Part shown: one piece after another, positions 1,791 to 30,384 of the stretch
Layout of the letters: each line of letters begins with the position of its first letter
Position numbering within the stretch: the first letter of the stretch is position 1
DNA from: a virus
Taxonomy: Duplodnaviria > Caudoviricetes
Virus record (IMG/VR): IMGVR_UViG_3300037589_000089
Location: 1-38,798 of that record
Direction: 5' to 3' (one strand)
Length of the DNA: 38,798 nt
The notes under the pieces: model-generated
Databases searched by the model: none
Told to the model about the DNA's origin: nothing
The model's input: the letters and a program-made list of their open reading frames with translations, nothing else
Translations under genes and position numbers: made by a program

Positions 1791-2441
1791 ATGCTTAGAT
1801 TCGATGTAAAGGGCTCAGCCAGAAAACCGTACCGTGTCACGGCAGAGGGATCGGGTCTCGACTTGCGGATGTACTGCACGTGCCCGGCCGGTGGGTTGGG
1901 CGGTCAGTTTTGCAAGCATGCCGCCGCGTTGCTCGTCGGAGACATCTCCAACCTGGAGTCGGCGGCGCAGGATGTAGAAGTACTTCGGGCTCTTGCGGTC
2001 GGCAGCCCACTGCTCGCGCGGGCATTGCAGCATGTGCCGAGCGCGGGCAAGCGCCCAGCCATTCACGGATTTCCGGATCTTCAGTCAGTGGTAGTTGGGT
2101 TTGGGGAAGAGCTTCGCAAACAGGGCTGGTACGTCCAGTGGGGCGCAACTGGCTTCGATGGCGATGAAAACCTGGGTCTGCACAAGCAGACGAAGGGCGG
2201 CAAACCGCGAAAGTGGCCAGCGGTGTCGCTTGAATACCAAGAATATGTCTACGAGTTCCAGGATGGGGAGAATGGTTTCGCGGAGGAGATTCGCGGAGAG
2301 AGAAGATCCCGGCCCTGGATCGTGCGCGGAAAGAAGACGGGAACGTTCGGTAGCCTTGACCGGGCGCTGCCGGTTTTCCTTGATGAGGCAGAGCGATTGG
2401 CGCCTATTCCGGCCGCACCGAATAGACCACCCGTCCAATGA
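1791..2441 (+). CDS. SWIM zinc-finger domain protein (accessory, immunity region)
   Basis: 'PYRVT...YCTCPAG....FCKHAAALL' fits SWIM CxC-xn-CxH; convergent with, and overlapping the 3' end of, the repressor gene. Confidence 0.8.
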   Translation: MLRFDVKGSARKPYRVTAEGSGLDLRMYCTCPAGGLGGQFCKHAAALLVGDISNLESAAQDVEVLRALAVGSPLLARALQHVPSAGKRPAIHGFPDLQSVVVGFGEELRKQGWYVQWGATGFDGDENLGLHKQTKGGKPRKWPAVSLEYQEYVYEFQDGENGFAEEIRGERRSRPWIVRGKKTGTFGSLDRALPVFLDEAERLAPIPAAPNRPPVQ

Positions 2442-3030
2442 CGCGAACGATATCGCCGTCGTCGCCTTCCAGCGTGAGCGGCTCCTGGTGCCTCGGATCT
2501 GTTGAATCCGGCATCAGCCACAAGTTTCCTGTGTCGTCCCGGGCAAGTGTCTTGACCGTTGCTTCTCTTCGGCCATCGGGTTTTTCCCGCTCGACCACGT
2601 AGCGTTTGCCGACTTCAAGCGACTCCGGCCGTTCAATTAGCGAAGTAAAGACTATAACCGTGCCTTCAGGGTAGACCCGGTTCATTGAGGGGCCGCGCGT
2701 CTCCGCGCCATAGAGCGACATTGCGGCCAGGCCGGGCGAAAACGGCACCGACACGTCGTACCAGTCTTGCTCGTCCCATTCGAATGCTTCGCGCCACGAA
2801 CCGGCCTCGACGCATCCGCGCACTCTTACAGTCCGCACGCTGCTTGAGTCGCTGATAAGGTCAACCGGTTCGACGTGAAATATGTCTGCCAGCTCGCGCA
2901 TGCGGTTGTAGGTGAGTTCGACTTTTCCGTTTTCCAACCGGTTGTAATTGGTCAAATCAATGCCAAGCCGATCTGCGACATCGGCTTGCGTCATTCGGCG
3001 CTCTTTGCGAATTGTCTTTAATCTCAACAT
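2404..3030 (-). CDS. cI: CI-like repressor (XRE HTH + S24 peptidase)
   Basis: N-terminal 'LKTIRKERRMTQADVADRLGIDLTNYNRLENG' HTH; 'VEAG' cleavage site, 'GPSM' Ser and 'TVK' Lys of S24; divergent from cro with operators between. Confidence 0.95.
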   Translation of the reverse strand: MLRLKTIRKERRMTQADVADRLGIDLTNYNRLENGKVELTYNRMRELADIFHVEPVDLISDSSSVRTVRVRGCVEAGSWREAFEWDEQDWYDVSVPFSPGLAAMSLYGAETRGPSMNRVYPEGTVIVFTSLIERPESLEVGKRYVVEREKPDGRREATVKTLARDDTGNLWLMPDSTDPRHQEPLTLEGDDGDIVRVIGRVVYSVRPE

Positions 3031-3125: not shown

Positions 3126-3374
3126 ATGAAGCTCACACAATGGCGATTGACCCAGATAAAGACGCTGACCGAGTGCGCCGCCTTGTTCGGGCTGGCGAGC
3201 GCCAGAACCTATCAGCGTTACGAAGCCGGAGAAACCCGTGCGGACGCCGATCTGGTGGAGGTCATTGTCCGCCGCACGGAAGGACAGGTGACCGCCACGG
3301 ATATGCATGACACGCGGCTCGACTGGCTCAAGGTCAACCGGCCCGAGAAGTTCATCCCGGAGGCTGCGGAATGA
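3126..3374 (+). CDS. cro: Cro-like HTH regulator
   Basis: 82 aa, 'TLTECAALFGLASARTYQRYEAGE...TEGQVTATD'; divergent from cI. Confidence 0.88.
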   Translation: MKLTQWRLTQIKTLTECAALFGLASARTYQRYEAGETRADADLVEVIVRRTEGQVTATDMHDTRLDWLKVNRPEKFIPEAAE

Positions 3375-3394
3375 GCGGCCCCGGTCAGTTTCAA

Positions 3395-3470
3395 CGCAGG
3401 GTGGGGAAGCGGTTATCCCGCCTGGTTCATACCCAGGATGTCGCCGGTTCGAATCCGGCCCCTGCAACCA
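3395..3470 (+). tRNA. tRNA-Met(CAT), initiator (fMet)-like
   Basis: 76-nt cloverleaf: acceptor CGCAGGG/CCCTGCA with C1xA72 mismatch, D stem GGGA/TCCC, anticodon stem CCTGG/CCAGG with loop TTCATAC, T arm GCCGG-TTCGAAT-CCGGC, encoded ACCA. Confidence 0.92.
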
Positions 3471-3595
3471 ATACCCCGAGCGCGCCCGCTGATTTGCGCG
3501 ACAAAGAACGGAAGGCCTGCAGCGGCGGGGCGGGTTTTCCATTTTCATCATCCGGTCCTCCTTGATCACCGGATGATCTGACCAGTTTTGAACGC

Positions 3596-3640
3596 TTCCC
3601 ACCACGGGAAAGAGAACCGGGTTTTCCCGGAACGGGAAAG
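3596..3640. promoter_or_regulatory. two TTCCC-N5-GGGAA(AG) palindromic boxes upstream of the CII-like gene
   Basis: TTCCCaccacGGGAAAG (3596-3612) and TTCCCggaacGGGAAAG (3624-3640), 28 bp apart. Confidence 0.5.
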
Positions 3641-3649
3641 GTGTGTCCA

Positions 3650-4135
3650 ATGCTCAAGAATGCATGGTTTTACCGCATCAAGGCGGCGCAGCGCGACCTG
3701 ATCGCCCTGTCGGGCGGCATCGAACGCGCTGCCGAGATCACCTCGATCTCCAAGAGCCATGTCGGCCGCTGGAACAATGCCCAGGACACCGACCTGATGC
3801 CGCTCAACGCGGTGCTGATGCTGGAAGAGCATTGCGGCGTCGCCGTGGTCACCAGCGTCATGGCCGAGCTCAACGGGCGGCGCCTTGCCGACGAGACCGA
3901 GGCCACTCGGCAGAACCCCGATGTTCTCTCCGCCTATGCTGAAGCAGTACGCCACGCCGGCGAGGTCATGAGCGCCGGCGCCATAGCTCTGGCCGACGGC
4001 AAGGTGACGCCCGCCGAGGCGCTGACCGTCGATCGTGCTGTCTCTGTGCTCGAGCGCGGGCTTTCGGATTTGCGCCAGACGCTTGCCCACGTGCGGGCCG
4101 GCGATCTCAAGGTCGTCGGCGGGGAGGGCAAGTGA
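3650..4135 (+). CDS. phage regulatory CII-like protein
   Basis: Position after cro; HTH-like 'GGIERAAEITSISKSHVGRW' and C-terminal 'ALADGKVTPAE' typical of CII-family proteins. Confidence 0.75.
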   Translation: MLKNAWFYRIKAAQRDLIALSGGIERAAEITSISKSHVGRWNNAQDTDLMPLNAVLMLEEHCGVAVVTSVMAELNGRRLADETEATRQNPDVLSAYAEAVRHAGEVMSAGAIALADGKVTPAEALTVDRAVSVLERGLSDLRQTLAHVRAGDLKVVGGEGK

Positions 4136-4449
4136 TGGCCTCCGTCTTCAAGGGCCAATCCGCGGGCAAGTCGGAGCAAATTGTCCTTCTCTCGACGCCT
4201 TCGACGACGGACGCAAGCGCGGTGCAAGCTCTGTTCGAGGCGCATCGCCGCAAGGTCGACAAGGCGTTTGGTGTGCCGCGTAGCATGCTCGGGCGCGATC
4301 ACATGCTGACGTCCGTCTTTCCAGCCGCCGCCGTCCCCTCGTTCCGGATCCTCGGCGCACGTCTGGCTCTGGCTGAGGTTGCCGCGATGGATGCCGTGGA
4401 GGGACGGGCAGGCTTTGCCCGGTCACCATTGTCGAGGTTCGACAAATGA
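4135..4449 (+). CDS. hypothetical protein
   Basis: GGAGG SD, overlapping start/stop with both neighbours. Confidence 0.6.
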   Translation: MASVFKGQSAGKSEQIVLLSTPSTTDASAVQALFEAHRRKVDKAFGVPRSMLGRDHMLTSVFPAAAVPSFRILGARLALAEVAAMDAVEGRAGFARSPLSRFDK

Positions 4450-5384
4450 TCGTGTCCGTCAATCAAAGCCAGCCCAGCGCCCTGCGTCCGGTCACGGTTC
4501 CCGCTGCCATGGAAAAGCCGGTGCTGCGCGGCGATCGCCCGCATCTGGGCTGGGTGGAAATCTCGAAGCTTCGGATCGACGACCGCTACCAGCGGCCGCT
4601 GCAGCGGCACAACTGGGATGCGATCGGCCGCATTGCCAAATCATTCGACTGGAGCCTGTTCACGGTTGTCGATGTCGCACCGATCGGCGACCAGCTGTTT
4701 TCGGTGATCGACGGGCAGCACCGGGTGCACGCGGCGCTGATGGTTGGTATCGACAAGGTTCCGGTGCGCATCGTTGCGCAGCCGCTCGAAGGTCAGGCCC
4801 GCGCCTTCATGGGCATCAATGGCAATGTGACGGCCATCTCGACCTTTCACGTGCTGCGCGCCAGCCTGACTGCAGGCGAGGCCTGGGCGGTGGAAGCCGA
4901 CCGGGCGATCACCCGCGCCGGATGCCGGCTGATGACCTCCAATCGCGCCACCCATGAGCGCAAGCCCGGCGAAGTCTATGCTGTGCAATGGGTGCGTGGT
5001 CTCGCCGAGCGCGACGGCGGTGCCGACGCCTGGGCGATCGCGCGGCTCGAAATTGCACTGTCGAGCCTCAAACAGAGTGTAGAGGGCGGGGCCGACGCCG
5101 GTCTCTGGACCCATGTGATGCTGCGCGCCTGGTATGGCGCGGTTGATGGCCTTGACGATTATCTCGATGCGCCCGGCGCCGCAGGGGCGCTCGCCCGGTT
5201 TCTTGACCGGGAAGGGCTGGTCCGGCTGCTGGCCCGGGCCGAGGACCGGTACCGGCAGGCCAAGCGCGACGGCAAGCCATCGGCTGCGGTCTACCGCCTG
5301 TTGATGGGAGACTTGCAGGACCGGCTCGACCATGCCTTTCCGGACCGGTCGGCTTTCACGCGGGCAGGGGAGGCGGGGCGATGA
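4446..5384 (+). CDS. ParB/Srx-like N-terminal domain protein
   Basis: 'LRIDDRYQRPL...FSVIDGQHRVHAALMVGIDKVPVRI' ParB-like GxHR motif. Confidence 0.85.
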   Translation: MIVSVNQSQPSALRPVTVPAAMEKPVLRGDRPHLGWVEISKLRIDDRYQRPLQRHNWDAIGRIAKSFDWSLFTVVDVAPIGDQLFSVIDGQHRVHAALMVGIDKVPVRIVAQPLEGQARAFMGINGNVTAISTFHVLRASLTAGEAWAVEADRAITRAGCRLMTSNRATHERKPGEVYAVQWVRGLAERDGGADAWAIARLEIALSSLKQSVEGGADAGLWTHVMLRAWYGAVDGLDDYLDAPGAAGALARFLDREGLVRLLARAEDRYRQAKRDGKPSAAVYRLLMGDLQDRLDHAFPDRSAFTRAGEAGR

Positions 5385-6553
5385 GTGGGGCGCAAGTCTT
5401 CCTTGACGGTCGCGTGACACTTCATGTCGGGGATTGTCTTCCGATGCTAGCTGGCATGGATGCCGACAGCGTCGACTGCGTTGTGACCTCGCCACCTTAC
5501 TGGGGATTGCGCGATTACGGGGTCGACGGACAGATCGGGCTGGAGCCGACGCTGGCTGAGCATCTTGCCGTCATGGTCGAGGTGTTCGAGCAGGTCCGGC
5601 GGGTGCTCAAGACGACTGGGACTTGCTGGGTCAATTATGGCGACTGCTACGCCACAAGTCCGAACGGGCGCAGCGCGGCCGACACGAAGGCATCCGGCAA
5701 CGATGACCGGACCTTCCGCGACAAGCCGTTTTCGACGATCCAGGGCACCTTGAAGGCCAAGGACTTGTGCATGGTTCCGAACCGCTTCGCGATCGCGATG
5801 CAGGACGCGGGTTGGTATGTTCGGTCCGAGATCGTCTGGGGAAAGTCAAACCCGATGCCGGAGAGCATCAAGGACCGCCCCGCCACATCCCACGAGAAAA
5901 TCTTCCTGTTTACCAAGTCGGCCCGGTATCACTACGACGCCGAGGCGGTTCGCCAAAACAGGGTGCAGGATGAGGACGCCAACGGCTTCCGAGGTGGCTC
6001 CTACGTCGGCGGCGTGCCAGGGCCGCGCCAAACGGTGGGCAATCGTCGAATCGATACCTCGACACTCTCCGGCGGCGCTTACGGGCGACATCATTTGGGT
6101 GAAGTCATCCCGAGCGGAGAGAGACACGAGAAGGCGAGGGCCTCGAAGATTGCCTCACCCCGGCATGCAGATCATATCTGTCACACGAAGCTCGACGGTA
6201 CTCCGCGCGGGCTTGGACGCAACCTGCGCAATTACGAGCCGGCCCCGATCAGTGTCTGGCCAATTGCGACGCGCGCGTTTCCTGAGGCTCATTTCGCCAC
6301 TTTCCCTCCAGAGCTTGCGGAACGCTGCATTCTCGCTGGCTGCCCGAAGGGCGGCGTTGTGCTCGATCCTTTCGGCGGGGCGGGAACCACGGCGCTCGTC
6401 GCGCTGCGCCATCAACGCCGGGCCGCGCTGATCGAGCTCAATGCCGACTATGCCGCGATGGCCCGCAGCCGAATTGAAAAGGAATGGCGAGCCGCGCCGG
6501 TGGCCGACGCTTCGCCCGATATCGGCCCGCTGTTTGACGGGGTGCCTGCATGA
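5381..6553 (+). CDS. DNA amino-methyltransferase, beta class (N4-cytosine/N6-adenine)
   Basis: Catalytic 'VTSPPY' near the N-terminus, 'HFATFP', SAM-binding 'VLDPFGGAGTT' near the C-terminus. Confidence 0.95.
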   Translation: MSGAQVFLDGRVTLHVGDCLPMLAGMDADSVDCVVTSPPYWGLRDYGVDGQIGLEPTLAEHLAVMVEVFEQVRRVLKTTGTCWVNYGDCYATSPNGRSAADTKASGNDDRTFRDKPFSTIQGTLKAKDLCMVPNRFAIAMQDAGWYVRSEIVWGKSNPMPESIKDRPATSHEKIFLFTKSARYHYDAEAVRQNRVQDEDANGFRGGSYVGGVPGPRQTVGNRRIDTSTLSGGAYGRHHLGEVIPSGERHEKARASKIASPRHADHICHTKLDGTPRGLGRNLRNYEPAPISVWPIATRAFPEAHFATFPPELAERCILAGCPKGGVVLDPFGGAGTTALVALRHQRRAALIELNADYAAMARSRIEKEWRAAPVADASPDIGPLFDGVPA

Positions 6554-6945
6554 CACCCTATCGCCCGGAGATCCGACTCACAATCGTCACCAACCACCCG
6601 GCGCGCGCTGTGCTGGCTGTACTCGGCGTCGAGATGGCACCCGCTTGGCTCGCGATCGTCACCACGCTCGAAGGCGTCCGGACATTGCCTGCTGGAGCAA
6701 AGGTGATCGGTCAATGGTTCGAGCCGCGCAAGCATCGCTCGGCGCTCGAATGGGCGTTTCAGACACGGCGGATTCAGGGAGACCTGATCGGCCTGTCGCT
6801 TGAGGATTGCGACAAGCTCGCCGCCTGGGCTGCGCGTCACCGCGACGCCGCAGGCGCGCAAGACAAGAATGTGCGCACGGGCATCGATTCAAGCCTGGCC
6901 GCCGCGACCAGCGGCATGGTGATCAGCGAACGGAGGATCTCATGA
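6550..6945 (+). CDS. hypothetical protein
   Basis: ATGA-coupled on both sides within the early operon. Confidence 0.7.
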   Translation: MTPYRPEIRLTIVTNHPARAVLAVLGVEMAPAWLAIVTTLEGVRTLPAGAKVIGQWFEPRKHRSALEWAFQTRRIQGDLIGLSLEDCDKLAAWAARHRDAAGAQDKNVRTGIDSSLAAATSGMVISERRIS

Positions 6946-7154
6946 GCATCCATCTTCTCGTCGGCAGTCCGGCCAAGGGCTTCCCTTCGGCAATCAAGCA
7001 GCTGGGTATCGTGGCGCTGTGGCAGGCGGGGTTCGATCACGACGAGATCGGTGCGCAAGTGTCGCTGCATCCCTCGCGGGTTGCGAAAGTGCTCGACCTG
7101 GTGCGAGAGAAAACCGGCGCGCTGCGCCCGGCACATCCGGAGGCAATGCGATGA
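6942..7154 (+). CDS. small HTH-like protein
   Basis: GGAGG SD, ATG 6942; 'LWQAGFDHDEIGAQVSLHPSRVAKVL' HTH pattern. Confidence 0.7.
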   Translation: MSIHLLVGSPAKGFPSAIKQLGIVALWQAGFDHDEIGAQVSLHPSRVAKVLDLVREKTGALRPAHPEAMR

Positions 7155-7756
7155 CGGGCGGGCTTGGTTGTTCCTGGTTCATCGGTCCGTTTCCGCACAT
7201 CGCTCGGCGGGTTCCCGGAGGGCCGTTCGGCAGTCCTTCGGCCATCGCACCGCATTTCGACGCGCTGGAGCCTGCGGAACAGGCCTCGGCGGTCAAGCTG
7301 ATGCTGGAGCGCGGCGACGATGTCGGAGAGATCGCCGACTGGCTCGGCCTGTCGCGAGCGGCAATCGAGGCCATCAGCGTCCGGCACTGCCAGCTCATCA
7401 GCCCCCGCGGCGAGGGCGATGATGTCAAGCGCAGGCCCGGTTCGGGGCCGAAGCGCCGCGCGGTTTCATGCGCCGCGGTCGACCGTGCGCTCGATGACAC
7501 GCTGCTGGCGATCGATGCGCTGCGCGCGAGGGCAGGCGGCGGACGCGAAGCCGCGTTCGACCTGACGCTCGAAGAGGTCTGCCAGGCGTGCGGCTTCGGG
7601 CTGGAGACAGCGCGGCGGCGGTTCAAGGAGCTTGAAAGCCGCAAATGGGTGCGCCGCAAGCTGCGCGCAGGCCTGCCCGCGCGGGTGACGATCGCGCTCG
7701 CGGGGCGCTGCAGGCTCGATGCGTTGGCGGGCAACAAGGGGAGGGCAAAGCCATGA
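7151..7756 (+). CDS. putative DNA-binding protein with HTH and winged-helix-like segments
   Basis: 'GDDVGEIADWLGLSRAAIE' and 'LTLEEVCQACGFGLETARRRFKELESRKWVRR'; coupled start at 7151. Confidence 0.7.
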   Translation: MTGGLGCSWFIGPFPHIARRVPGGPFGSPSAIAPHFDALEPAEQASAVKLMLERGDDVGEIADWLGLSRAAIEAISVRHCQLISPRGEGDDVKRRPGSGPKRRAVSCAAVDRALDDTLLAIDALRARAGGGREAAFDLTLEEVCQACGFGLETARRRFKELESRKWVRRKLRAGLPARVTIALAGRCRLDALAGNKGRAKP

Positions 7757-8079
7757 TGGCCCGGGTCCACCACGAGCCCCGGCCGCTCTACATCATCGCG
7801 CCGGATCTCTGGCAGTGCCGCAGAACCGCGCTGGCCCACGGGCTGGACCCGGAATCGCTTGGGGCGGTTCGTTGCATCACCTCGGCCTACCAGTTGCGTG
7901 GCACCCGGCCCGGCACGCCGTTCATCACCCACGGCCGCGATAACTGGGTGCGTGCCATGCCCGGCGTTTACGATCTCGATCAGACCATCGACCTGCTCAC
8001 CCGAACCGGCCGTCTCCGCGTCGCCGGAAACGACGACATCGCCGCCGCGCGCGGGGAGAAGCAGGAGGCAAGAGCTTGA
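7753..8079 (+). CDS. hypothetical protein
   Basis: MMARVHHEPRPLYIIAP...; coupled to neighbours. Confidence 0.7.
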   Translation: MMARVHHEPRPLYIIAPDLWQCRRTALAHGLDPESLGAVRCITSAYQLRGTRPGTPFITHGRDNWVRAMPGVYDLDQTIDLLTRTGRLRVAGNDDIAAARGEKQEARA

Positions 8080-10199
8080 GCCGCCCCCTGATCATCGACT
8101 GCTTTGCCGGTGGCGGCGGGGCCTCCACCGGCATCGAGATGGCTCTCGGGCGCTCGCCGGACTACGCCATCAACCACGATCCGGTGGCTGTGGCCATGCA
8201 TGCGGTCAACCATCCGGATTCGGTGCACCTGTGCCAGAATGTCTATCAGGTCGATCCTCTGGATCACTTCGCCCGCGCGCATATCGGCTTTGCCTGGTTC
8301 TCGCCCGACTGCAAGCACTTCTCCAAGGCCAAGGGCGGCGCGCCGGTGCAGCGGAACATTCGTGACCTGGCGTGGATCATCCCCGGATGGATCGAGCGGA
8401 TCCAGAAATCGGGCGGCAAGGTCGACGTGGTGGCGATCGAGAATGTAGAGGAATTCCAGACCTGGGGCCCGCTGCTGACGACCGACAAGGGTCTGGTGCC
8501 GGATCCCGCCCGGAAGGGCGAGACCTTCCAGAAATGGTGCAAGAAGCTCCAGCAGTTGGGCGGCAAGATCGAATGGCGCGAACTCCGGGCCTGCGATTAT
8601 GGCGCGCCGACAATTCGCAAGCGGGTGTTTATCCTGATCCGGTTTGACGGCAAGCCGATCGTCTGGCCGGAGCCGACGCACGGACACCCGGACAGCGAGG
8701 CTGTAAAGGCCCGGAGGCTCAAGCCCTGGCTGACGGCGGGGCGCGATGTGATCGACTGGTTGATCGTCTGTCCCTCGATCTTTGACAGCAAGGCGGAAAT
8801 CCTGCTCAAGCACAATCTTCGCGCGGTGCGTCCGCTGGCGGGCAACACGCAGACCCGGGTGGCGCGCGGTATCAAGCGATACGTGCTGGACGCAGCAAGG
8901 CCATTTCTGGTCAACCTGACCCACGGGGCCAGGCTGGAGGACGCGGGCCAGCCAATGCGCACCGTGACCGGGGCAAATCGGGGCGAGAAGGCGGTGGTAT
9001 CGCCGGTGATCACCTATGCCCAGCAAGGGGGCGCGGTGCGGGATCCGGGCGATCCGCTGCACACCGTGACGGCGTCGGCCAAGGATCAGAACGCGGTGAT
9101 TGCGCCGCACCTGATGACCATGCGCAACGCCGGAAAGCCATTCCAGGGCGCGGACGAACCGGCCCACACGGTGACCGCCGGCGGGGCGGGGCTGACATGC
9201 GTTGCCGCCTCGCTGGCGCAGACGGGCTATGGTGAGCGGGAGGGACAGGCACCGCGCGCGCTCGATCCAGATGCGCCGCTCGGGACGGTGGTTGCCGGTG
9301 GCGTCAAGCACGCGCCTGTGGCGGCCTATTTGGCGGCGGGGTCACCCGGCCCGGATAAGAACAACCGCGCTGCAAAGAATAGCGAGCGCCATGAGGCCGA
9401 CAAGTCCTTTACCGCGAAAGGTGAAGTGTTTGTATCTAAAGCTGAACATCGGGCGTGTCTCCTTGTGAACGATGGCTCGAGTTTCGATCAAGAGAAGGGG
9501 TGTCGGTTTTTCCCGGATGCTCCTGCCGTCGCTTTTCTTGCCCAGCACAACAATGACAGCCGCCGCGCTGGCGGTGTTAACCCCGGTCGCGATCTACGTG
9601 ATCCTGTCTCGACGATCACGGCTGTGCCGCAGCAGGCGGTCGTTGCCGCCAACATGTTTTCGATGAAGGGCAGCGGCAGGCGGGCCAGCGGAGCCGATGA
9701 GCCGGCGCGGGTGGCGTGCACGGGCGGTGGTCAGTCCGCCATCGTGGCGGGTGCGGTGACCAAATACTACGGCACCGGCGACGGGCAGGAGCCCGGCGAT
9801 CCGCTCCACACCGTGACCACCAAGGACCGTTTCTGCCTCTCGCAAGCCGCCCTCTGCGCTCCGCCCTTTGGGCCGGAACACCATGAGCGCGCCCGCGAGG
9901 TGGCGGCGTTCCTGCGGACGCACGGCTTCTGGGACGATCGCGAGTTTGTGACGCTCGATGTGGAGGGCGTCACGCTGGTGATGGTCGACATCGGCATGCG
10001 CATGCTCACGCCGCGCGAGCTGTTCAACGCGCAGGGCTTTCCGGATGACTATGAGATCGACCGGGATCTCGACGGCAATGTGTTCTCGAAATCCGATCAG
10101 GTTGGGCGCGCCGGCAACAGCGTCTGCCCGCCGTTGGCCGAAGCGATTGCGCGGGCAAATGTCCCGCACCTGGCGGCGTTCGAGGAGGCTGCGGAATGA
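8076..10199 (+). CDS. DNA (cytosine-5) methyltransferase, long phage type
   Basis: Motif I 'DCFAGGGG', IV 'SPDCKHFS', VI 'ENV', VIII 'RKR', IX 'RMLTPREL..AQGFP', X 'GNSV'; repeated 'P.HTVTA' units in the variable region; TTG start with GGAGG SD. Confidence 0.95.
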   Translation: MSRPLIIDCFAGGGGASTGIEMALGRSPDYAINHDPVAVAMHAVNHPDSVHLCQNVYQVDPLDHFARAHIGFAWFSPDCKHFSKAKGGAPVQRNIRDLAWIIPGWIERIQKSGGKVDVVAIENVEEFQTWGPLLTTDKGLVPDPARKGETFQKWCKKLQQLGGKIEWRELRACDYGAPTIRKRVFILIRFDGKPIVWPEPTHGHPDSEAVKARRLKPWLTAGRDVIDWLIVCPSIFDSKAEILLKHNLRAVRPLAGNTQTRVARGIKRYVLDAARPFLVNLTHGARLEDAGQPMRTVTGANRGEKAVVSPVITYAQQGGAVRDPGDPLHTVTASAKDQNAVIAPHLMTMRNAGKPFQGADEPAHTVTAGGAGLTCVAASLAQTGYGEREGQAPRALDPDAPLGTVVAGGVKHAPVAAYLAAGSPGPDKNNRAAKNSERHEADKSFTAKGEVFVSKAEHRACLLVNDGSSFDQEKGCRFFPDAPAVAFLAQHNNDSRRAGGVNPGRDLRDPVSTITAVPQQAVVAANMFSMKGSGRRASGADEPARVACTGGGQSAIVAGAVTKYYGTGDGQEPGDPLHTVTTKDRFCLSQAALCAPPFGPEHHERAREVAAFLRTHGFWDDREFVTLDVEGVTLVMVDIGMRMLTPRELFNAQGFPDDYEIDRDLDGNVFSKSDQVGRAGNSVCPPLAEAIARANVPHLAAFEEAAE
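9342..9449 (-). CDS. 35-aa membrane peptide nested antisense inside the C5 methyltransferase
   Basis: AAGGAGA SD 8 nt before ATG; MFSFRYKHFTFRGKGLVGLMALAILCSAVVLIRAG; lies in a visibly AT-richer patch. Confidence 0.6.
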   Translation of the reverse strand: MFSFRYKHFTFRGKGLVGLMALAILCSAVVLIRAG

Positions 10200-11551
10200 G
10201 CGAGATCATCGACCTGTTCATCGCTCGCGCCCGGGACGTCTCGATTGCGGAAGCCGCGCCGCGGCTGGGGCTCACGCTCAAGGGCAGCGGCGCCGAGCAG
10301 GCGATGCCGTGCCCGCATTGTGGCGGCAAGGACCGCTTTGCGCTCAACACGGTCAAGAACAAGTGGAACTGCCGTGGCGGCTCGACCGGCGGCAATGATG
10401 CGATCGGCATGGCCGCGCACATTCTCGGCCTCGATGTCGGCCGGCGTCCCGAGTTCCTCGAGGCTTGCGGCGCGGTGCTGGGCAAAGCGGTGCCCGATGA
10501 GGCCGAACCGGTGAGCGAGGAACGGCGCGCGGAGATCCGCGCCGAGGCAGAGGTGCGGGCGGAACAGGCGGCGCGGGATGCGGCAGCGCGCCAAAGCGAG
10601 GCCAATGACTTCCGGGACAGGGAGTTGGCCAGGTGTCGCGGAATATATGAAGCTGCAGATCTGGGGAGCCGGCTCTTGGGCATGCGCTATCTGCATGCCC
10701 GCTCAGGCTTGCCGATCGAGGCGGGCGCTCACGCCTGCCGCGCAATCCGGCTTGAGCCGAAACTCTCCTACTGGCACGGCAAGGACGAGCGCGGCTACGC
10801 CCGTGATATCTGGTGCGGTCCGGCTTTGGCGCTGCCCTTCGTTGATGGCGGCGGCGAGCTGATCGGCATCCACCAGACATGGATCGATCTCGACAACGGT
10901 CCGAAATACAGGCCAGCGCTCTACGGCTTGAGCAAGACCGGCGCAGATGCCGGGCGCGAAGACCGGGCAGGGCCGCCGACCGCGCACTGGCCGTCACCCG
11001 CCGATCTGAAAGCCGGGTTCTATGAACCGCTCGCCACCAAGAAGATGCGCGGTTCGAAAAAGGGCGGGCTGTTGCCGCTGGCGGGCGACATGAGTGCCAC
11101 GCGCTGGGTGGTGGGTGAGGGGGTAGAAAACGTGATCGCCTGGTTCGGCGCGGAATTGAATGAAGACCAGGATCTGGCCCTCTCCACCTTCTATGCTGCA
11201 GCCGGCGATATCGGTAACCTGGCGGGCCCGTCCGCGCGCACCGGCCGCTTCGCCCACCCGACAGCGACGAAGATCAACGCGAAGGGGGCTGCGAGGCAGG
11301 TGATGATGCCGAGCCCTGAGCCCGACCCGGAGCGGCTTGCCGAGGGCTTTCCGCTCGGGACCCACGTGCGCGAGCTGCTGTTCCTCGGCGACGGCGATTC
11401 CGAGCCGGTTTGGACCGCGGCCCACATGGCCCGCGCCGAAGCCCGCGCGCAGCTGATCGCCCCCGGCATCGAGGTCGCAACCGCCTGGCCGCCGCGGGGG
11501 CACGACTGGGCCGAGGTGATTGCAATGGCACTGCGTGGCGAGGCGGCATGA
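10196..11551 (+). CDS. DNA primase (P4 alpha-type zinc finger + Toprim-like domain)
   Basis: 'PCPHCGGKDRF...WNCRG', 'VGEGVEN', 'GDGD', 'PPRGHDW'. Confidence 0.88.
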   Translation: MSEIIDLFIARARDVSIAEAAPRLGLTLKGSGAEQAMPCPHCGGKDRFALNTVKNKWNCRGGSTGGNDAIGMAAHILGLDVGRRPEFLEACGAVLGKAVPDEAEPVSEERRAEIRAEAEVRAEQAARDAAARQSEANDFRDRELARCRGIYEAADLGSRLLGMRYLHARSGLPIEAGAHACRAIRLEPKLSYWHGKDERGYARDIWCGPALALPFVDGGGELIGIHQTWIDLDNGPKYRPALYGLSKTGADAGREDRAGPPTAHWPSPADLKAGFYEPLATKKMRGSKKGGLLPLAGDMSATRWVVGEGVENVIAWFGAELNEDQDLALSTFYAAAGDIGNLAGPSARTGRFAHPTATKINAKGAARQVMMPSPEPDPERLAEGFPLGTHVRELLFLGDGDSEPVWTAAHMARAEARAQLIAPGIEVATAWPPRGHDWAEVIAMALRGEAA

Positions 11552-15447: not shown

Positions 15448-16101
15448 ATGAACGACGGTGTGTGGCTGACAGTTTCTGAGATCGCGCGGCGCAAGGGCGT
15501 CTCGCACCAGGCTGTTTCCAAGCGTGTTAAATCGCTGGAAGCCGATGGCAAGATCTCGCCGCGCCCGGACGGAAGAAGGACGCTTGTAGACCTGGTCGAG
15601 TATGACCGTGCTGTCGGTGACTTCGGCGATGGGTCGCGGGAAGCGGCGGCTGACACCGTGCGATCGGCCAAGCAGGGACAGGCGTCCAAGCCAGGCTCCG
15701 TTCCGGATGGCATCAAGCCCAGCGTTGTTCCAGACGGCATGCGGGATGCCCAGCTCGAACGTGTGCGCTATGACGCTAAGATGCGGGCGCTCGATTTTGC
15801 CGAGAGGACCGGACAGCTTGTCCCGGTTTCTGGACCGGGCGGGATCGAGGACGCAATGGTGGCCGCTGCCGAAAAGATTATCAGCGTTCTGGACCTTATG
15901 CTGCGGGCAGCCCCGGACCTGGTCATCGCAGCACGGGAAGGGGAGCCGGCAGCCAGACGGGAGATCCGGAAGGTCATCCATTCCCAACGCGTTGCCATCG
16001 GTGATGCGATGCGCCTGCTTGAAGAACAGGGACGCAAGATCGAAGCCGCCGGCGGCATAGAGACCGAAGTCGATATCGATCTGTTCCGAGGGCTTGAGTG
16101 A
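15448..16101 (+). CDS. terS: terminase small subunit
   Basis: N-terminal HTH 'LTVSEIARRKGVSHQAVSKRV', Nu1-like 'LDFAERTGQLVP'; directly before terL. Confidence 0.85.
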   Translation: MNDGVWLTVSEIARRKGVSHQAVSKRVKSLEADGKISPRPDGRRTLVDLVEYDRAVGDFGDGSREAAADTVRSAKQGQASKPGSVPDGIKPSVVPDGMRDAQLERVRYDAKMRALDFAERTGQLVPVSGPGGIEDAMVAAAEKIISVLDLMLRAAPDLVIAAREGEPAARREIRKVIHSQRVAIGDAMRLLEEQGRKIEAAGGIETEVDIDLFRGLE

Positions 16102-18104
16102 TGAAAATCACGTTGAAGCGCGTGCCGCTGGCCATTGTCGGCGGGATTCTTGCCGCCCTCATCACCCCGCCGCCGATCATGACGCCCTCGGCGCTTGCGG
16201 CGGAAGTCATGGTGGTGGCCGACGGTCCGCGCGCCGGCGAACTGTGGGATCCGGCGCAAACGCCCTACATCGTCGAGCCGCTGGATCTGATGGTCGCAGG
16301 CTCCGGCGTCAACGAGATCGCCATCCGAAAGTCGGCGCAGACCGGCTTCACTACCATGCTGCTCGCAGCGGCGGCCTACATCATTGATCGCGATCCGTGC
16401 AGGGCGATGATCGTGCAGCCGACCTCCGGCGCGCTTGCCGACTTCAACAAGGACAAGCTGACACCGACGCTCGAGCAATCGCCAGTGCTGGCGGCAAAGA
16501 TCAAGTCGCAGACCAGCCGGTCGGGCGACGCATCGACAGTCACGTCGAAGCGGTTCCAGGGCGGGTCGATTACGCTCGCGATCGCCAACTCGGCCGCCGA
16601 CCTTCGCTCGAAGACCGTCAAGGTCGCGCTCTGCGACGAGATCGACGAATATCCGGACGACCTGGACGGCCAGGGCGATCCGATGGCCATGATCGAGGCC
16701 CGTCAGGAATCCTTCCTGATGTCGGGCGAATGGCTTCGGGTCTATGTCTCGACGCCGACGATCAAGGCCGCTTCGCGGATAGATGCGCAGTGGGAGCGGT
16801 CGGACAAGCGCTACTGGCACATGCCGTGCCCCGGCTGCGGCGACATGTTCCGGTTCGAGTTCGACCGGAAGCACTTCCGGTTCAAGGCGGAGTGGCCGCA
16901 TGAAGCGCATTATGCCACGCCGTGCTGCGGTTCCGTGATCGAGGACGCGGACAAGGTGACGGTGATGAAGCGCGGTCGCTGGATCGCAACCGAGCCGAGA
17001 CCTGGCGCCATTCGCGGCTATCATTTCGATGCGCTGGCTTCTCCGTTCGTGCCCTTCGACAAGATCGCTTCCCGCTTTATCGGGGCAGAAGGCGATCCGA
17101 TGAAGATGAAGGCGTTCTACAACCTGACGCTTGGGCTCGCCTATGAGATGAAAGGCGATGCGCCCGACCATGTGCGGCTCATGGAGCGGCGCGAGAAAGA
17201 TATCAAGCGCGGACATATCCCGTCGCGGGGGCTGATCCTGACCGGCACCGCAGACGTGCAGATGAACGGCATCTGGTACGAGATTGTCGCTTGGGCCTCG
17301 AACCGCGAGAACTGGACTGTGGACGCTGGCTACATAGCCGGCGCAACGGACGATCCTCACAGCGGCGCTTTCGTCAAGCTCGAGGAGATCCGCCAAAGCC
17401 AGTGGCCCGACGCCTTCGGCGGTTCGCGCACGGTTGACAGTTTCGGCGTCGACTCCGGTTATCGCAGCCACGTTGTCTACACATGGGTGCGCGGCAAGGC
17501 GGCGACGTTTGCGCTCGACGGCCGCGACGGCTGGTCGAAGCCCGCCATCGGCGCGCCGTCACCCGTCGATATCAACTTCAATGGCCAGCGCATCCGCCGC
17601 GGTGCGATGGTCTGGGGCGTCGGAACATGGCCGCTCAAGGGTGTGATCTATGCAGACCTTCGAAAAGAAGGCGTTGCCGCGGGCAAGGAAGTTGACCCGG
17701 CCGGTTACTGCCACTTCGGCGACTGGCTGGACGAGGTCTATTTCCGTCAGATCACGTCCGAGTACCTGACAAACGAAAATTACCGGGGCCGGATTCGGCG
17801 CATCTGGAAGGTCCGCAACGGCGAGGAAAACCACCTGTTTGACTGCCGAGTCTACAATTACGCGCTGGCTGACTACCTCGGCGTTTCCAGAATGACCGCG
17901 GACCAGTGGGCCGTTCTTGCCAGCCGCCGCGGCGTACCGGCAGAGATCGCCAATCCGGATATGTTTGCGCCGGAGCCTGTGAAGGTGGCCAGCGCCGCGC
18001 CTGTGGCTCCGAAGCCCGCGCCGGATCGGACCGCTACCCGGCCAGTTATCGAAGACGACGGTGACGCCTGGATCTCGAATGCAACCGGATGGTGGGACGA
18101 CTGA
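16101..18104 (+). CDS. terL: terminase large subunit, lambda GpA family
   Basis: 'TPY', Walker A 'KSAQTGFT', Walker B 'LCDEID', 'STPT', 'PCPGCG', nuclease 'ADVQ', 'VDSGY', 'NHLFDCRVY'. Confidence 0.96.
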   Translation: MKITLKRVPLAIVGGILAALITPPPIMTPSALAAEVMVVADGPRAGELWDPAQTPYIVEPLDLMVAGSGVNEIAIRKSAQTGFTTMLLAAAAYIIDRDPCRAMIVQPTSGALADFNKDKLTPTLEQSPVLAAKIKSQTSRSGDASTVTSKRFQGGSITLAIANSAADLRSKTVKVALCDEIDEYPDDLDGQGDPMAMIEARQESFLMSGEWLRVYVSTPTIKAASRIDAQWERSDKRYWHMPCPGCGDMFRFEFDRKHFRFKAEWPHEAHYATPCCGSVIEDADKVTVMKRGRWIATEPRPGAIRGYHFDALASPFVPFDKIASRFIGAEGDPMKMKAFYNLTLGLAYEMKGDAPDHVRLMERREKDIKRGHIPSRGLILTGTADVQMNGIWYEIVAWASNRENWTVDAGYIAGATDDPHSGAFVKLEEIRQSQWPDAFGGSRTVDSFGVDSGYRSHVVYTWVRGKAATFALDGRDGWSKPAIGAPSPVDINFNGQRIRRGAMVWGVGTWPLKGVIYADLRKEGVAAGKEVDPAGYCHFGDWLDEVYFRQITSEYLTNENYRGRIRRIWKVRNGEENHLFDCRVYNYALADYLGVSRMTADQWAVLASRRGVPAEIANPDMFAPEPVKVASAAPVAPKPAPDRTATRPVIEDDGDAWISNATGWWDD

Positions 18105-18304
18105 TGGCCTGGACACAAGCCGACCTCGACAAGATCAGCGCAGCCATTGCGTCCGGCGCAAAGCGCGTGAAATTCCAGACGCATGAGGTGGAATACCAGA
18201 GCGTCGCCGAAATGCTGAAGGCTCGCGACCTCATTGCTGCCGACGTCAATCCAGCGAGCGGCCGCGGCGGCGCCATATATGCCCAGTATGAGAGCGATTA
18301 TTGA
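18104..18304 (+). CDS. gpW-like head-tail joining protein
   Basis: MAWTQADLDKISAAIASGAKRVKF...VEYQSVAEM; between terL and portal. Confidence 0.88.
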   Translation: MAWTQADLDKISAAIASGAKRVKFQTHEVEYQSVAEMLKARDLIAADVNPASGRGGAIYAQYESDY

Positions 18305-19836
18305 TGAACATCGTCGACAAGGCCATTGCCTATTTTGCGCCGACTGCCGGTGTCAGGCGGGCCGGTGCACGTCAGCTGCTCGAGCAGACAGAAAAGCGCG
18401 AATACGCGGCTGCAGGTTCCGGGCGCCGGAACTCCGGATGGCGGGGCCGCAACACATCGGCGGCGACCGAGGTCGCCGGATCGCTCACTTTCCTGATGGC
18501 GCGGTCGCGCGAGTTCGTGCGCAACAGCTGGCAAGGACAGCGCATTCTCGATGTCCTTACGTCGCACGTCATCGGCACCGGCATCATGACCGTCCCGAAC
18601 ACCGGTTCCGACCGGGCAGACAGGATCTATCGCCTGGCGCGTGAGGAATGGGAAGAGAACAGCGACATCGAAGGTGTGCTCGACTACGGCGGGCAGCAGG
18701 CCATGGCGCTGCGGTCAATGGCGGAATGCGGCAACAGTGTCATCCGTCATTTGACGGACAGCAACCAGGACACGCGGCGGCGCATCGTGCCGCTTCGTCT
18801 GCAGGGCATCGAGGGTGACCAGATCGATACGTCGCGCGACACCTTGTCGGGAGTGACAAGAAATACCGACGGCGAGCGTGTGCGGCTTGGCGTGAAGCTG
18901 GGAGAGTGGAACCAGCGCCAAGGGATGTACCTTCACAAGACACACCCCGGCGAGCAGGGTGTTGCCAATATCGAAGCTTCGACGCTGGTTGGCTGGAACG
19001 ATCTTTGCCACCTCTACCGACCTCTTCGTTTCGGACAGCTTCTGGGTGTTCCGGTCTTCGCGCCCATCCTGATGACCGGGCGGGATATTCAGGATCTGAT
19101 GGATGCGGCGATTGTCCAGCAGAAAGTGCAGGCCAGCTTTGCCGGGTTTCTCCGGCGTGCACCCGGGGAAGCCAACCCCTTTGCAACAGAAAAGACGGAT
19201 GGCGCCGATGGCAAATCGCAGACCGTCACCCAGATCAGGCCGGGGCAAATCCAGGACATTGGAGACAGCGAAATCGTGTTTTCGAATCCGTCGGGAACAT
19301 CTGTTTTCGGCGAAGCCTATCTGGCTGGAATGATGGCCATGGCGGCTGGTGCTGGGCTCACCTATGACCAACTGACCGGCGATCTGCGGCAGGCTAACTA
19401 CTCGAGCCTTCGAGCTGGCAAGATCGAGTTCCGCCGCCTGGTGGAGCAGATGCAATGGCACATGGTGGTGCCGATGATCTGCCGCCCGGTGGATCGCAAG
19501 TTCGAGCAGATGGGCCTTATGTCCGGTGTCCTGCCCAGGCGGAAGGGCGGATATCGTGTGGACTACGTGATGCCTGCCGTCGAGCCGATCGACCCCAAGA
19601 AGGACATGGAGGCAGACATCCTTGCTGTCCGTTCCGGGCGGATGTCGCCACAGGAATTCATTTCGGCGTGGGGAAGAGACTGGCGCAAGGTCGTCACCGA
19701 CTTCGATGCGTTCTTCAACTTCTGCAACCAGAACGCTTTGGACGGTCTGATGTTCGACATCGACCCCAGGCGACCGGCGAACGGCGGCGCCAATGCGCCG
19801 CGGGCAGACCAGACAGGAGCAACCGACAATGGCTGA
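18304..19836 (+). CDS. portal protein, lambda family
   Basis: 'ARSREFVRN', 'R.GQ..GVP', 'LTGDLRQANYSSLRAG', 'IDPKKD'. Confidence 0.95.
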   Translation: MNIVDKAIAYFAPTAGVRRAGARQLLEQTEKREYAAAGSGRRNSGWRGRNTSAATEVAGSLTFLMARSREFVRNSWQGQRILDVLTSHVIGTGIMTVPNTGSDRADRIYRLAREEWEENSDIEGVLDYGGQQAMALRSMAECGNSVIRHLTDSNQDTRRRIVPLRLQGIEGDQIDTSRDTLSGVTRNTDGERVRLGVKLGEWNQRQGMYLHKTHPGEQGVANIEASTLVGWNDLCHLYRPLRFGQLLGVPVFAPILMTGRDIQDLMDAAIVQQKVQASFAGFLRRAPGEANPFATEKTDGADGKSQTVTQIRPGQIQDIGDSEIVFSNPSGTSVFGEAYLAGMMAMAAGAGLTYDQLTGDLRQANYSSLRAGKIEFRRLVEQMQWHMVVPMICRPVDRKFEQMGLMSGVLPRRKGGYRVDYVMPAVEPIDPKKDMEADILAVRSGRMSPQEFISAWGRDWRKVVTDFDAFFNFCNQNALDGLMFDIDPRRPANGGANAPRADQTGATDNG

Positions 19837-20449
19837 GATTATTCGCCTGCCGAAAATGCTACGGGACGCTGAGATCCGCGCCGCGTCCTATGATGAGCAG
19901 GACAACACCATCGAGGTGGTATGGACGACAGGATCCACAGGCCGCCGGGTGACGTGGATGGACGGCGAGTTTGATGAAGAGCTGGTCGTCAATGAAAAAT
20001 CGGTGCGCATGGACCGGCTCAATGCCGGAGCTCCATTTCTGGACACGCACAATCGTTTCGGCCTCGATGCGGTTCTTGGTTCGGTGGTTGCAGGTTCAGC
20101 AAGGATCAGTAACGGAACCGGTACTGCGCGGATCATGCTTTCAAAGGCAGCCGACGCAGTGGACCGGGTTTCGAAGATCATAGAGGGCACGGTGAGAAAT
20201 GTTTCCGTCGCCTACAAGATTCATGGCGTCGAAAAATCACAGCGTGAAGGAAAGGTCCCTTTGCACCGCGTCATCGACTGGGAGCCGATGGAGATCTCGG
20301 CGGTTCCTATCGGATTTGACCCTGGCGCCCAGGTCAGAAGTGCGACCGAAGAAGAGCTTTACGCATGTCGTGTCGAGCATTCGATCGCAGACCGCAACAC
20401 TGTGCGCCGCATGATGATGCAGATGCGCCAGAAACAATTTGTCGGGTAG
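19829..20449 (+). CDS. prohead protease (HK97/U35-type)
   Basis: 'APFLDTH', 'RNVSVAY', 'WEPMEISAVPIGFDPGA'. Confidence 0.9.
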   Translation: MAEIIRLPKMLRDAEIRAASYDEQDNTIEVVWTTGSTGRRVTWMDGEFDEELVVNEKSVRMDRLNAGAPFLDTHNRFGLDAVLGSVVAGSARISNGTGTARIMLSKAADAVDRVSKIIEGTVRNVSVAYKIHGVEKSQREGKVPLHRVIDWEPMEISAVPIGFDPGAQVRSATEEELYACRVEHSIADRNTVRRMMMQMRQKQFVG

Positions 20450-20531
20450 CGCTCGGCGCTGCTGTCAAACCCGCCTTTGTGCGGTGCCCTAAACCAGCCC
20501 TTGGGCCAGGCAATCACTAAAGGAAACCATC

Positions 20532-22190: not shown

Positions 22191-22217
22191 CGCGCCGTTT
22201 TCCTGAAAGGCGTATCA

Positions 22218-22241
22218 GCGCCGGCGGCTAAACGCCGGCGC
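22218..22241 (+). terminator. GC-rich hairpin after the capsid gene (mRNA stabiliser or weak terminator)
   Basis: GCGCCGGCG-gctaaa-CGCCGGCGC; no strong T-tract. Confidence 0.5.
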
Positions 22242-22275
22242 ATCTTCTCACACGATTTTCCCAGGAGACATGACC

Positions 22276-22602
22276 ATGAAAAACTATGTGCAACCCGGCG
22301 ACACGCTGACCGTCGCCGCCCCTTCCGGAGGCGTTGTGTCCGGAGCCGCCGTCGTGATCGGCAACCTTCGCGGCTTCGCTGTGGCGACGGCTGCCGAGGG
22401 CGCGGATGTCGCGATTGCTCGCACCGGTGTGTTTACCACCTCGATCAAGGCAACGGGCACGGCCTGGGCCGTCGGCGATCTCGTCTACCTCAAGGCTGAC
22501 GGGACCGAATTCAACAAGACGGCGTCGGGCAACACGCTGTTCGGTTTTGCCGCGGCGCCTGCGGCGTCCGGCGACACCACAGCCTCCATCTGCCTGACCT
22601 AA
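22276..22602 (+). CDS. DUF2190-family capsid cement/decoration protein
   Basis: 'MKNYVQPGDTLTVAAP.GGVVSG', 'GVF', 'AWAVGD.VY'. Confidence 0.9.
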   Translation: MKNYVQPGDTLTVAAPSGGVVSGAAVVIGNLRGFAVATAAEGADVAIARTGVFTTSIKATGTAWAVGDLVYLKADGTEFNKTASGNTLFGFAAAPAASGDTTASICLT

Positions 22603-22623
22603 GCCGGACCGGAGAAAACACCC

Positions 22624-23034
22624 ATGACAGACTTTTCCGATCTTGCGGCACTGGCGCGCGGTGCGGTGGGTGCTGTCATGGGTGAAACCGTCACGATCGT
22701 CCCGGTGACAAAACAGGGCGGGCCGAACTCTTCGGCGGTTGTTGCCGATCCGAATCGTGCATCTTTCGACGCTGTCGCGGTGCCTTACCGGTTGATGCAC
22801 AATATTCCAGATGGCCGTGGCGGAACGCAGGGCCCGGGTGTCGGCGGCACTGAGCGGACGGGCCTGCATACGGCTCAGGAAACCACTCTGGCCATGGACC
22901 AACCCGCCGTGAACCTCAAGGATGGCGACCGGGTGCAAAGGTCTGACGGATCCTGGTGGGCCATGCGCGCACCGCAGACCGATGAGGCCGGGACCTTCGT
23001 CGTTTCCATTTACCGATCGAGCGAGATCGCCTGA
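22624..23034 (+). CDS. head-tail joining (gpFII-like) protein
   Basis: Position and pattern 'GETVTI...LKDGDRV...PQTDEAG'. Confidence 0.6.
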   Translation: MTDFSDLAALARGAVGAVMGETVTIVPVTKQGGPNSSAVVADPNRASFDAVAVPYRLMHNIPDGRGGTQGPGVGGTERTGLHTAQETTLAMDQPAVNLKDGDRVQRSDGSWWAMRAPQTDEAGTFVVSIYRSSEIA

Positions 23035-23789: not shown

Positions 23790-24016
23790 TGCCCATGCAA
23801 CGCTACAAACCCGCCGATGGCGCGCCATTGCTGCGCACCACGGAAGGCGAAGCCTTCCCTGAAGAGGGCAAGATGATCGACCCGGCGAACCGCTACTACG
23901 CGCGGCTGATCAAGGAAGGCGCGCTTGAGCTCGTGGCGGACGATGCGCCCAAAACCAAATCCCGAACCAGCAAACCGGCGGCGGCGGCCGCACCCAACAA
24001 GGAGACGCGGAAATGA
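23786..24016 (+). CDS. DUF2635 (Mu gp38-like) small protein
   Basis: 'G..FPEEG.......YYARLIKEG.L' immediately before the sheath; start may be ATG 23795. Confidence 0.75.
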   Translation: MMPMQRYKPADGAPLLRTTEGEAFPEEGKMIDPANRYYARLIKEGALELVADDAPKTKSRTSKPAAAAAPNKETRK

Positions 24017-25494: not shown

Positions 25495-25556
25495 CCTAAC
25501 TTGAGCCGGGCGCGACAGCGCCCGGTTGACCCGACTCCAAACAAAGGATCCTGAAA

Positions 25557-25928: not shown

Positions 25929-25931
25929 CCC

Positions 25932-26365: not shown

Positions 26366-26367
26366 GC

Positions 26368-28260: not shown

Positions 28261-28262
28261 GG

Positions 28263-28730: not shown

Positions 28731-28741
28731 GTGGGGCAACA

Positions 28742-30381: not shown

Positions 30382-30384
30382 GAG

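Follow-up and report, generated by a model that had tools for sequence, protein, structure and literature searches.

Why does the gene of a phage DNA methyltransferase hold, in its own reading frame, a block of sequence that departs from the rest of the protein, and does the opposite strand of that block encode something of its own? These questions are raised by IMG/VR record IMGVR_UViG_3300037589_000089, a 38.8-kb temperate phage record analysed over its full 38,798 nucleotides (hereafter the window). A reading made from the sequence only had taken the block for a tolerated insert in a C5 cytosine methyltransferase that hides an antisense gene for a small membrane peptide. We find, by comparing three diverged copies, that this nested antisense gene is very probably real and under selection. 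The features on which the argument turns are the following.

8076 to 10199, plus strand: C5 cytosine methyltransferase, an orphan phage enzyme of 707 amino acids (PF00145, E-value 3e-21)
9336 to 9542, no strand assigned: in-frame cassette of 207 nucleotides (69 codons) that replaces one module of the enzyme, is unrelated to the modules and is present in 3 of 12 aligned enzymes
9342 to 9449, minus strand: antisense open reading frame (ORF) of 35 amino acids, very probably a nested gene, from frame tests and a helix model; kept in locus L091 (35 amino acids, 80%) and locus L005 (34 amino acids, 50%)
9458 to 9464, minus strand: Shine-Dalgarno (SD) sequence AAGGAGA, duplex energies -8.3, -6.6 and -10.3 kcal/mol across the three copies

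The antisense reading frame and the selection on it

The methyltransferase frame (8076-10199) runs uninterrupted across the insert. On the other strand, an ATG at 9449 opens 35 codons that close with TGA at 9344-9342, and AAGGAGA (9464-9458) lies 8 nucleotides ahead of this ATG. The encoded peptide has a basic and aromatic N-terminal half (net charge +5), an invariant RGKGLVGL and a 19-residue stretch from residue 16 with a mean hydropathy of 2.45. It is thus under 60 amino acids long with one predicted transmembrane helix, and the structure model is also a single helix, with a confidence score (pLDDT) of 92 over residues 21-30 and 56 at the N-terminus. The start signals, length and composition agree with what the sequence-only reading had described, and the SD duplex energies fall within the range of the phage's own genes.

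Three diverged DNA copies are available: the window, L091 (whose ORF reads as protein P0004) and L005. All three keep the ATG, with the GGAG core unchanged 9 nucleotides ahead of it, and all keep the ORF (35, 35 and 34 codons), its TGA at the left junction and the hydrophobic stretch from residue 16. An upstream extension to a GTG at 9548 would give 68 amino acids, but a stop breaks this extension in both homologues, so 9449 is the conserved start. How often would chance produce such an ORF? Related methyltransferase genes (80 of them, 162,639 bases) contain 15 antisense ORFs of 25-60 amino acids with GGAG and ATG; only one is hydrophobic (KD19, the hydropathy score over 19 residues, >= 2), and it is the L005 homologue itself.

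Which frame is selected? Since each antisense codon is the exact reverse complement of an enzyme codon, so that antisense position 3 is enzyme position 1, the two frame hypotheses predict opposite substitution patterns. Over codons 2-25, which are free of gaps, the 26 variable columns fall 6/5/15 at antisense positions 1/2/3 (binomial p 0.009). Between the window and L005, the ratio of nonsynonymous to synonymous differences (pN/pS) over the first 25 codons is 0.24 in the antisense frame (p 5e-6) and 7.05 in the enzyme frame, so the per-frame comparison that had been suggested as a check comes out for the antisense gene. Over 34 codons, with our own gap placement, the values are 0.40 (p 0.0003) and 2.57. 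Synonymous sites are near saturation between these two copies (pS 0.72-0.77). None of the 19 changed codons is silent for the enzyme; the controls are as expected, with silent changes in 78 of 96 changed codons of the catalytic N-terminus and in 23 of 24 of the two modules immediately upstream (window and L091). Run X11 contains a 98%-identical copy with at least 4 changes in the ORF; all those listed are non-silent for the enzyme, two are silent for the peptide and one yields Ile, as in L091. A second mapping of reads added no variants.

Neutral simulations point the same way. Of 50,000 run, 30,417 leave the enzyme frame open and 20,873 leave the antisense frame open as well. None of these 20,873 reaches the observed peptide similarity, and the enzyme-frame similarity score (32) is below the neutral mean (48). 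The ATG alone is retained in 6,360 of the 20,873. As far as sequence comparison reaches, what selection keeps over the ORF stretch is the antisense peptide rather than the residues of the enzyme frame. The homologues keep the SD, ATG and ORF while the methyltransferase-frame protein drifts, and the earlier proposal of a true nested gene stands. Double coding is cheap here, because only a TTA, CTA or TCA codon in the peptide would put a stop into the enzyme frame; no copy has one (CTT, CTC, TTG and AGY are used).

Several observations weigh against this conclusion. The window and L091 alone give a pN/pS of 0.46 with p 0.19, in the same direction and not significant; the diverged DNA copies number only three, of which two are close; and the open enzyme frame is not significant in itself, as 30% of neutral simulations stay open over 53 colinear codons. 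We also considered a fossil or shadow, in which a captured fragment has lost its expression or selection falls on the sense +1 frame. That frame stays open across this stretch in each of the three copies, with a pN/pS of 0.21, and ends at a shared TGA, and no promoter is assigned to the antisense ORF. The similar ratio is explained by the third positions that the +1 frame shares with the antisense frame. Amino acid changes in the +1 frame are radical (mean BLOSUM -1.1 to -1.4; of 8-19 changes, 1-2 score positive) and no start is kept, and we rejected it as a shadow; those in the antisense frame are conservative (+0.4 to +0.6; 4-9 positive of 7-19). A dead ORF would rarely keep its SD, ATG, length and helix at such a level of synonymous divergence, and we regard either form of this explanation as improbable.

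The cassette and its place in the enzyme

By its PF00145 domain and its homology to Phi2LM21_p23 and the RR1-A enzyme (49% identity to the phi2LM21 enzyme, 54% to that of RR1-A), the window enzyme is a member of the group of prophage 5-methylcytosine (m5C) methyltransferases of about 700 amino acids. Its N-terminal 269 codons have a pN/pS of 0.10 against L091, as expected of a catalytic part under purifying selection. The variable region that follows (8900-9820) is an array of modules of about 35 amino acids, whose number and order vary between enzymes otherwise 85-95% identical; anchor-motif counts run from 1 to 11 per protein and are mostly 6-9. In the AlphaFold model the catalytic core is confident and nearly all of residues 276-591 have a pLDDT below 50, insert and modules alike, so that the model does not separate the two. 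Short Cys-rich, possibly zinc-binding inserts lie inside or between modules in the variable regions of P0015, P0064, L007, L055 and L077. Because other methyltransferases of the family bear such inserts, the module array accepts unrelated sequence. The enzyme presumably tolerates 69 extra residues within this low-confidence array. In L023 (3001-5363) the methyltransferase match is about 2.36 kb long and the longest ORF with catalytic motifs begins 185 bases into it; there may be a break or insertion near the start of that gene.

The window insert breaks the module pattern and is AT-richer, as had been noted from the sequence. The guanine-plus-cytosine (GC) content is 0.48-0.57 over 9350-9549 and about 0.65-0.75 on both sides; at methyltransferase third positions it is 0.57 in the insert and 0.81 in the rest of the gene. 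The earlier length estimate of about 65 codons was slightly short of the actual 69. Two junction repeats bound the cassette.

9312 to 9335, plus strand: left junction repeat APVAAYLA, the end of the preceding module, read from the sequence; single copy at the empty site
9519 to 9542, plus strand: right junction repeat APAVAFLA, a diverged module-end copy borne by the cassette, read from the sequence

Together they form an imperfect 24-nucleotide repeat (14 of 24 bases alike). The empty site in L001, L002 and L006 has a single repeat copy and then QHNN. In L091 and L005 the right repeat is diverged, yet the same QHNN module always comes next. The cassette has the size and the ends of a module unit. 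Its profile finds nothing related among 196 non-carrier variable regions (best match E 2.5), and we rejected an origin by module decay, as no similarity to modules was found. Only one indel, of 3 nucleotides, occurs among the three DNA copies. Identical copies of the region are present in two other IMG/VR contigs, and 98% of its words recur in four runs; the insert is therefore not an assembly slip.

How widely is the cassette distributed? When the window enzyme is aligned with 11 close homologues, the 69-residue block is common to the window, P0003 and P0004 and absent in 9 of the 12. The fourth carrier is P0018 (Hoeflea sp. BAL378; loci L005 and L095), where the block replaces a module. Absence or replacement in close homologues is what the sequence-only reading had predicted. 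A profile search of the block among 2,699 candidates at E <= 10 returns four proteins, namely P0003, P0004, P0018 and a fragment of the window's own, so the cassette is known in four protein clusters only, and both named carriers are Hoeflea prophages. In a screen of 201 rows (121 proteins and 80 loci, partly overlapping), the insert is the longest atypical segment inside a variable region. In a search of these rows for other antisense cargo at the site, the remaining odd segments are mostly Cys-rich or divergent modules, and among the antisense frames listed for the loci there is no comparable peptide.

Searches for free-standing copies of the peptide found none. Its profile has 0 matches among 1.84 billion protein representatives; such cargo is invisible to annotation and protein databases. 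A tblastn search of phage and plasmid collections gives no peptide match. A degenerate pattern of 10 codons finds 4 viral contigs, all of them carriers, 9 genome matches, of which one is real (L095), and 6 metagenome matches, none of them real. Among scored genomes of the family (400), order (401) and genus (32), only G001 is convincing, with weak matches at E 0.002-0.05. PHROGs, NCBIfam, Pfam and PADLOC hold no significant match for any of the three members, either to a family or to a described exclusion or defence protein, and the ESM Atlas offers only unnamed clusters of 38-40 amino acids at 0.87-0.88, below the usable level, and no named match. L085, L125 and L134 are chance matches, and a match in the PDB to ribosomal protein S15e/S19 (E 0.008 over 17 residues) was taken as chance. 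So was a pattern match on a Prevotellaceae contig (L097, 767-844), a hydrophobic ORF of 25 codons starting MTLRGKGFVG. The searches for free-standing copies need exact words or called genes and can miss distant relatives.

The four carriers are rejected as one clade in trees of 18 rows (P0019 left out), with p-values of the approximately unbiased test (p-AU) of 0.015 for the N-terminal 237 columns and 0.0002 for the C-terminal 145 columns. Since the carriers are not one clade and the cassette ends are module-like, transfer by recombination is suggested: the cassette likely moves by the same process that shuffles modules, to judge from the sequences. Against this, non-monophyletic carriers could also be explained by repeated loss, or by recombination elsewhere in the enzyme gene.

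Leader, phage setting and possible function

The window phage has a cI-type repressor at 2404-3030 on the minus strand, reading leftward, and a rightward early and replication block with an N6/N4 methyltransferase, the C5 methyltransferase, a primase and a D5-type helicase (Pfam). The N6/N4 enzyme (PF01555, 5381-6553) is a second orphan methyltransferase, 1.5 kb upstream in the same block. The host is probably Hoeflea-like, because the closest named relatives of the C5 enzyme come from Hoeflea. Structural genes at 16098-34300 are mosaic, with lambda-type terminase and portal, a protease-capsid gene and a Mu-like contractile tail; the tail is common to relatives and the head is not. Repressors are swapped among related phages (window 2404-3030 compared with L178, L179 and L180). 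The window cI is 64% identical to that of G821, an empty-site phage, and shows no relation to the repressors of G822 and G823, the two further carriers, though G822 is 84-94% identical to the window over 3354 to 10890. At 808-966 on the minus strand there is another small ORF with GGAG and ATG (52 amino acids from 966) and a strongly hydrophobic end (KD19 2.95); it overlaps a plus-strand ORF of 213 amino acids (386-1027) without a Pfam family.

Upstream of the nested gene we identified two further features.

9472 to 9511, minus strand: conserved leader of non-coding type, a candidate promoter or regulatory region, with an invariant block at 9511-9498 (14 nucleotides) and a second block at 9492-9472
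9445 to 9483, minus strand: predicted hairpin covering the AUG (9483-9475 with 9454-9445), 25 of 27 cells paired with one compensatory change; weakly supported

Invariant columns are more frequent in the leader (43 of 66 ahead of the ATG) than at third positions of the ORF (9 of 24; Fisher p 0.03). Over the first 21 codons of the leader, read in the enzyme frame, the third base is also kept in 9 of 11 unchanged codons, compared with 106 of 185 in control blocks. Its conservation leans weakly to a nucleotide signal. Against this, the 28 codons of the leader have an enzyme-frame pN/pS of 0.35-0.36 in two of three pairs, and some protein-level constraint may be present. A consensus scan for E. 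coli-type sigma-70 sites, the only type it covers, finds none in 9000-10000, and it finds neither promoter nor terminator on the minus strand near the ORF. As a guess, a -10-like hexamer at 9485-9480 with a start at 9473 would fit the spacing in all three copies, without a canonical -35. Neither the window nor three control regions contain a second copy of the leader motif, and on this ground we rejected it as an operator or CII-type site. The motif is also invariant across carriers whose repressors are unrelated, so it is not an operator of the repressor. A host-read promoter or an RNA structure is more likely.

What might the peptide do? Our preferred reading, held tentatively, is a superinfection-exclusion or defence peptide that is expressed in the lysogen and sits in the membrane. 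A sporadic small membrane protein that a temperate phage expresses in the lysogen is most often an exclusion or defence factor. The nested gene is oriented like cI and opposed to the early block. Because of this orientation the peptide can be made while the early block is repressed and would be opposed at induction; it is rather probable that expression is mainly in the lysogen. No RNA run with the sequence is listed among 24 runs, which speaks neither for nor against expression. As long as the rightward early block is repressed, the gene would be driven by a leftward promoter that the host reads and that lies within the conserved leader or close to it. The predicted location of the peptide is the inner membrane, and its most plausible effect there would be to hinder rival phages from entering. 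By the positive-inside rule, under which the basic side of a membrane protein faces the cytoplasm, the basic N-terminal half would face inward. On induction, methyltransferase mRNA would oppose the peptide gene, and antisense silencing by this mRNA, as the sequence-only reading had envisaged for the lytic phase, is plausible from the geometry. One consideration weighs on this reading: the peptide has no homologue or family in our searches, and its function is read from shape and position.

A type-I-toxin-like membrane toxin, another function considered in the earlier reading, would be held back in translation by the leader hairpin and an antisense RNA, and would stabilise the prophage or the cassette or abort infection. 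The peptide resembles membrane type I toxins, as characterised in the accessible part of PMC8309996, in being under 60 amino acids and hydrophobic with one predicted helix and cationic residues; these last are N-terminal, where the C-terminus is general for the toxins. The SD is predicted to be mostly paired in three copies (unpaired probability 0.04-0.55). The AUG hairpin is compatible with all of them, and together with a 6-bp pairing of the 14-nucleotide block with the coding region it fits 43 of 45 cells, again with one compensatory change. However, shuffled sequences fold as stably overall (z 0.26), and 167 of 500 shuffles reach the same covariation. Rfam has nothing at its cut-off for a self-splicing RNA or known noncoding RNA (best E 0.083, far below cut-off); one weak plus-strand hairpin (9407-9426) is not kept in L005; and neither the promoter and terminator scan nor Rfam indicates a small antisense RNA. 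The only evident antisense transcript is the methyltransferase mRNA, which could not be the antitoxin in the lysogen because the rightward early block should be silent there. With no toxin match in Pfam or NCBIfam either, we consider such a toxin unlikely; the hydrophobic one-helix peptide of the earlier proposal stands, and the toxin reading has a gap, since it offers no likely antitoxin in the lysogen.

Could the peptide instead be a regulator, a small protein that acts by binding a membrane protein of the host (a transporter, kinase or protease) through its RGKGLVGL region, and tunes lysogen physiology or the lysis-lysogeny choice without an exclusion role? The best-kept stretch is the juxtamembrane T-x-RGKGLVGL, while helix residues swap freely among hydrophobics, a pattern that would suit a membrane-anchored binding motif. 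The peptide is also not tied to one repressor type. No result indicates a partner, though, and sporadic presence (4 clusters among 2,699 candidates) is more what one would expect of an accessory gene for defence than of a core regulator. We therefore give this possibility little weight.

One argument for a lytic-cycle role is the tail. In the three carriers with full records a contractile tail module is common at 75-89% DNA identity, while heads and repressors differ. The same tail is found in one of six empty-site enzyme carriers (G408; not G404, G414, G422, G820 or G821; one-sided p 0.048, with G819, a 35% fragment, left out and G827 counted with G408). The link is post hoc and the phages are related rather than independent. 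Moreover, none of five further same-tail records carries the peptide, one of them with an empty-site enzyme, so the peptide is not needed for that tail. Under the exclusion reading, this weak link would fit exclusion of kin that inject alike. Alternatively, the peptide could act in lysis timing, or protect the infected cell during tail assembly; it would then be made from a leftward promoter activated by the phage, like the antisense promoters of lambda. The phage has a CII-like gene (PF06892), and one of three members has a faint match to a PHROG annotated as holin (E 0.064). That match is within chance, the transcription would run head-on into the active early block, and the single-copy leader motif and the same-tail phages without the peptide argue against this role as well; it is highly improbable.

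More speculatively, the module array may serve as a socket for gene cassettes, in which an antisense unit disguised as a module is spread by module-shuffling recombination without nuclease, intron or intein; the unit here would represent a new family of membrane defence peptides for the lysogen, switched off by the mRNA of its host gene at induction. We regard this combined scheme as doubtful. Two carriers are prophages of named Hoeflea strains (BAL378 and EC-HK425), so that expression and function are directly testable. The reach so far is narrow, at four protein clusters and one host genus.

Comparison with known systems

The relaxed-specificity m5C enzymes Phi2LM21_p23, JCM7686_0772/2655 and ARM81mr_p29 are prophage methyltransferases of about 700 amino acids (PMC5537653), and Phi2LM21_p23 is reported there to be inactive in E. 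coli. The window enzyme resembles them in sequence and in its place in the replication module. It differs in bearing the 69-codon cassette; in the accessible part of PMC5537653 a nested gene is unmentioned and the term "variable region" occurs 0 times.

Embedded antisense genes are known from bacteria, such as nog1, asa, laoB, ano and aatS (PMC7457138). As in the window, a small ORF lies wholly inside an annotated gene on the other strand. The bacterial examples, as described in the part of that paper available, lie over native host-gene sequence, whereas the window's lies in an insert absent in most alleles, and here it is the antisense product that is conserved and not the host frame. This makes for a clean natural case in which an unannotated antisense frame, rather than the annotated protein, is kept by selection, with empty-site alleles as controls.

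The notion of a moron-like cargo gene, also raised by the sequence-only reading, holds in part. The window gene is accessory, sporadic among related phages and AT-richer than its flanks, has its own translation signals and runs against the lytic block, as with morons and small exclusion proteins. HK97 gp15 is reportedly an example of a small superinfection-exclusion protein, and DicB and Zip are said to be grouped with the same prophage morons. Morons normally lie between genes with their own promoter and terminator. The window gene lies inside another gene, no promoter or terminator was found for it by the sigma-70 consensus scan, our searches gave no free-standing copy, and in the four family databases it has no similarity to a described exclusion protein.

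The closest published case is the out-of-frame HNH insert of the ShiLan type. Hidden HNH inserts in mycobacteriophage DNA methylases are patchy, stop-free insertions that hide a second ORF (PMC11855218; PMC9957025). In ShiLan, as presented in the accessible part of PMC11855218, this ORF is a 195-amino-acid HNH nuclease on the same strand, in the third frame and with no detectable ribosome-binding site, and can drive its own homing. The likeness to the window is close: a patchy, in-frame, stop-free insert in an orphan phage methylase, apparently translated and tolerated as a loop, and with a hidden ORF. Here, however, the ORF is antisense, with a strong conserved SD, and encodes a 35-amino-acid membrane peptide without a mobility function. 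It hides no HNH homing endonuclease; the insert has only 207 nucleotides and Pfam finds no family. The cassette is not a ShiLan member, since it lacks the nuclease that defines the group. PMC11855218 does not use the word "antisense" (0 occurrences), and our literature search, with most subscription papers and supplements outside it, turned up no phage methylase described as containing an antisense gene for a membrane peptide. The window locus takes hidden genes in phage methylases beyond selfish nucleases, to a cargo peptide that is not mobile and has no known family.

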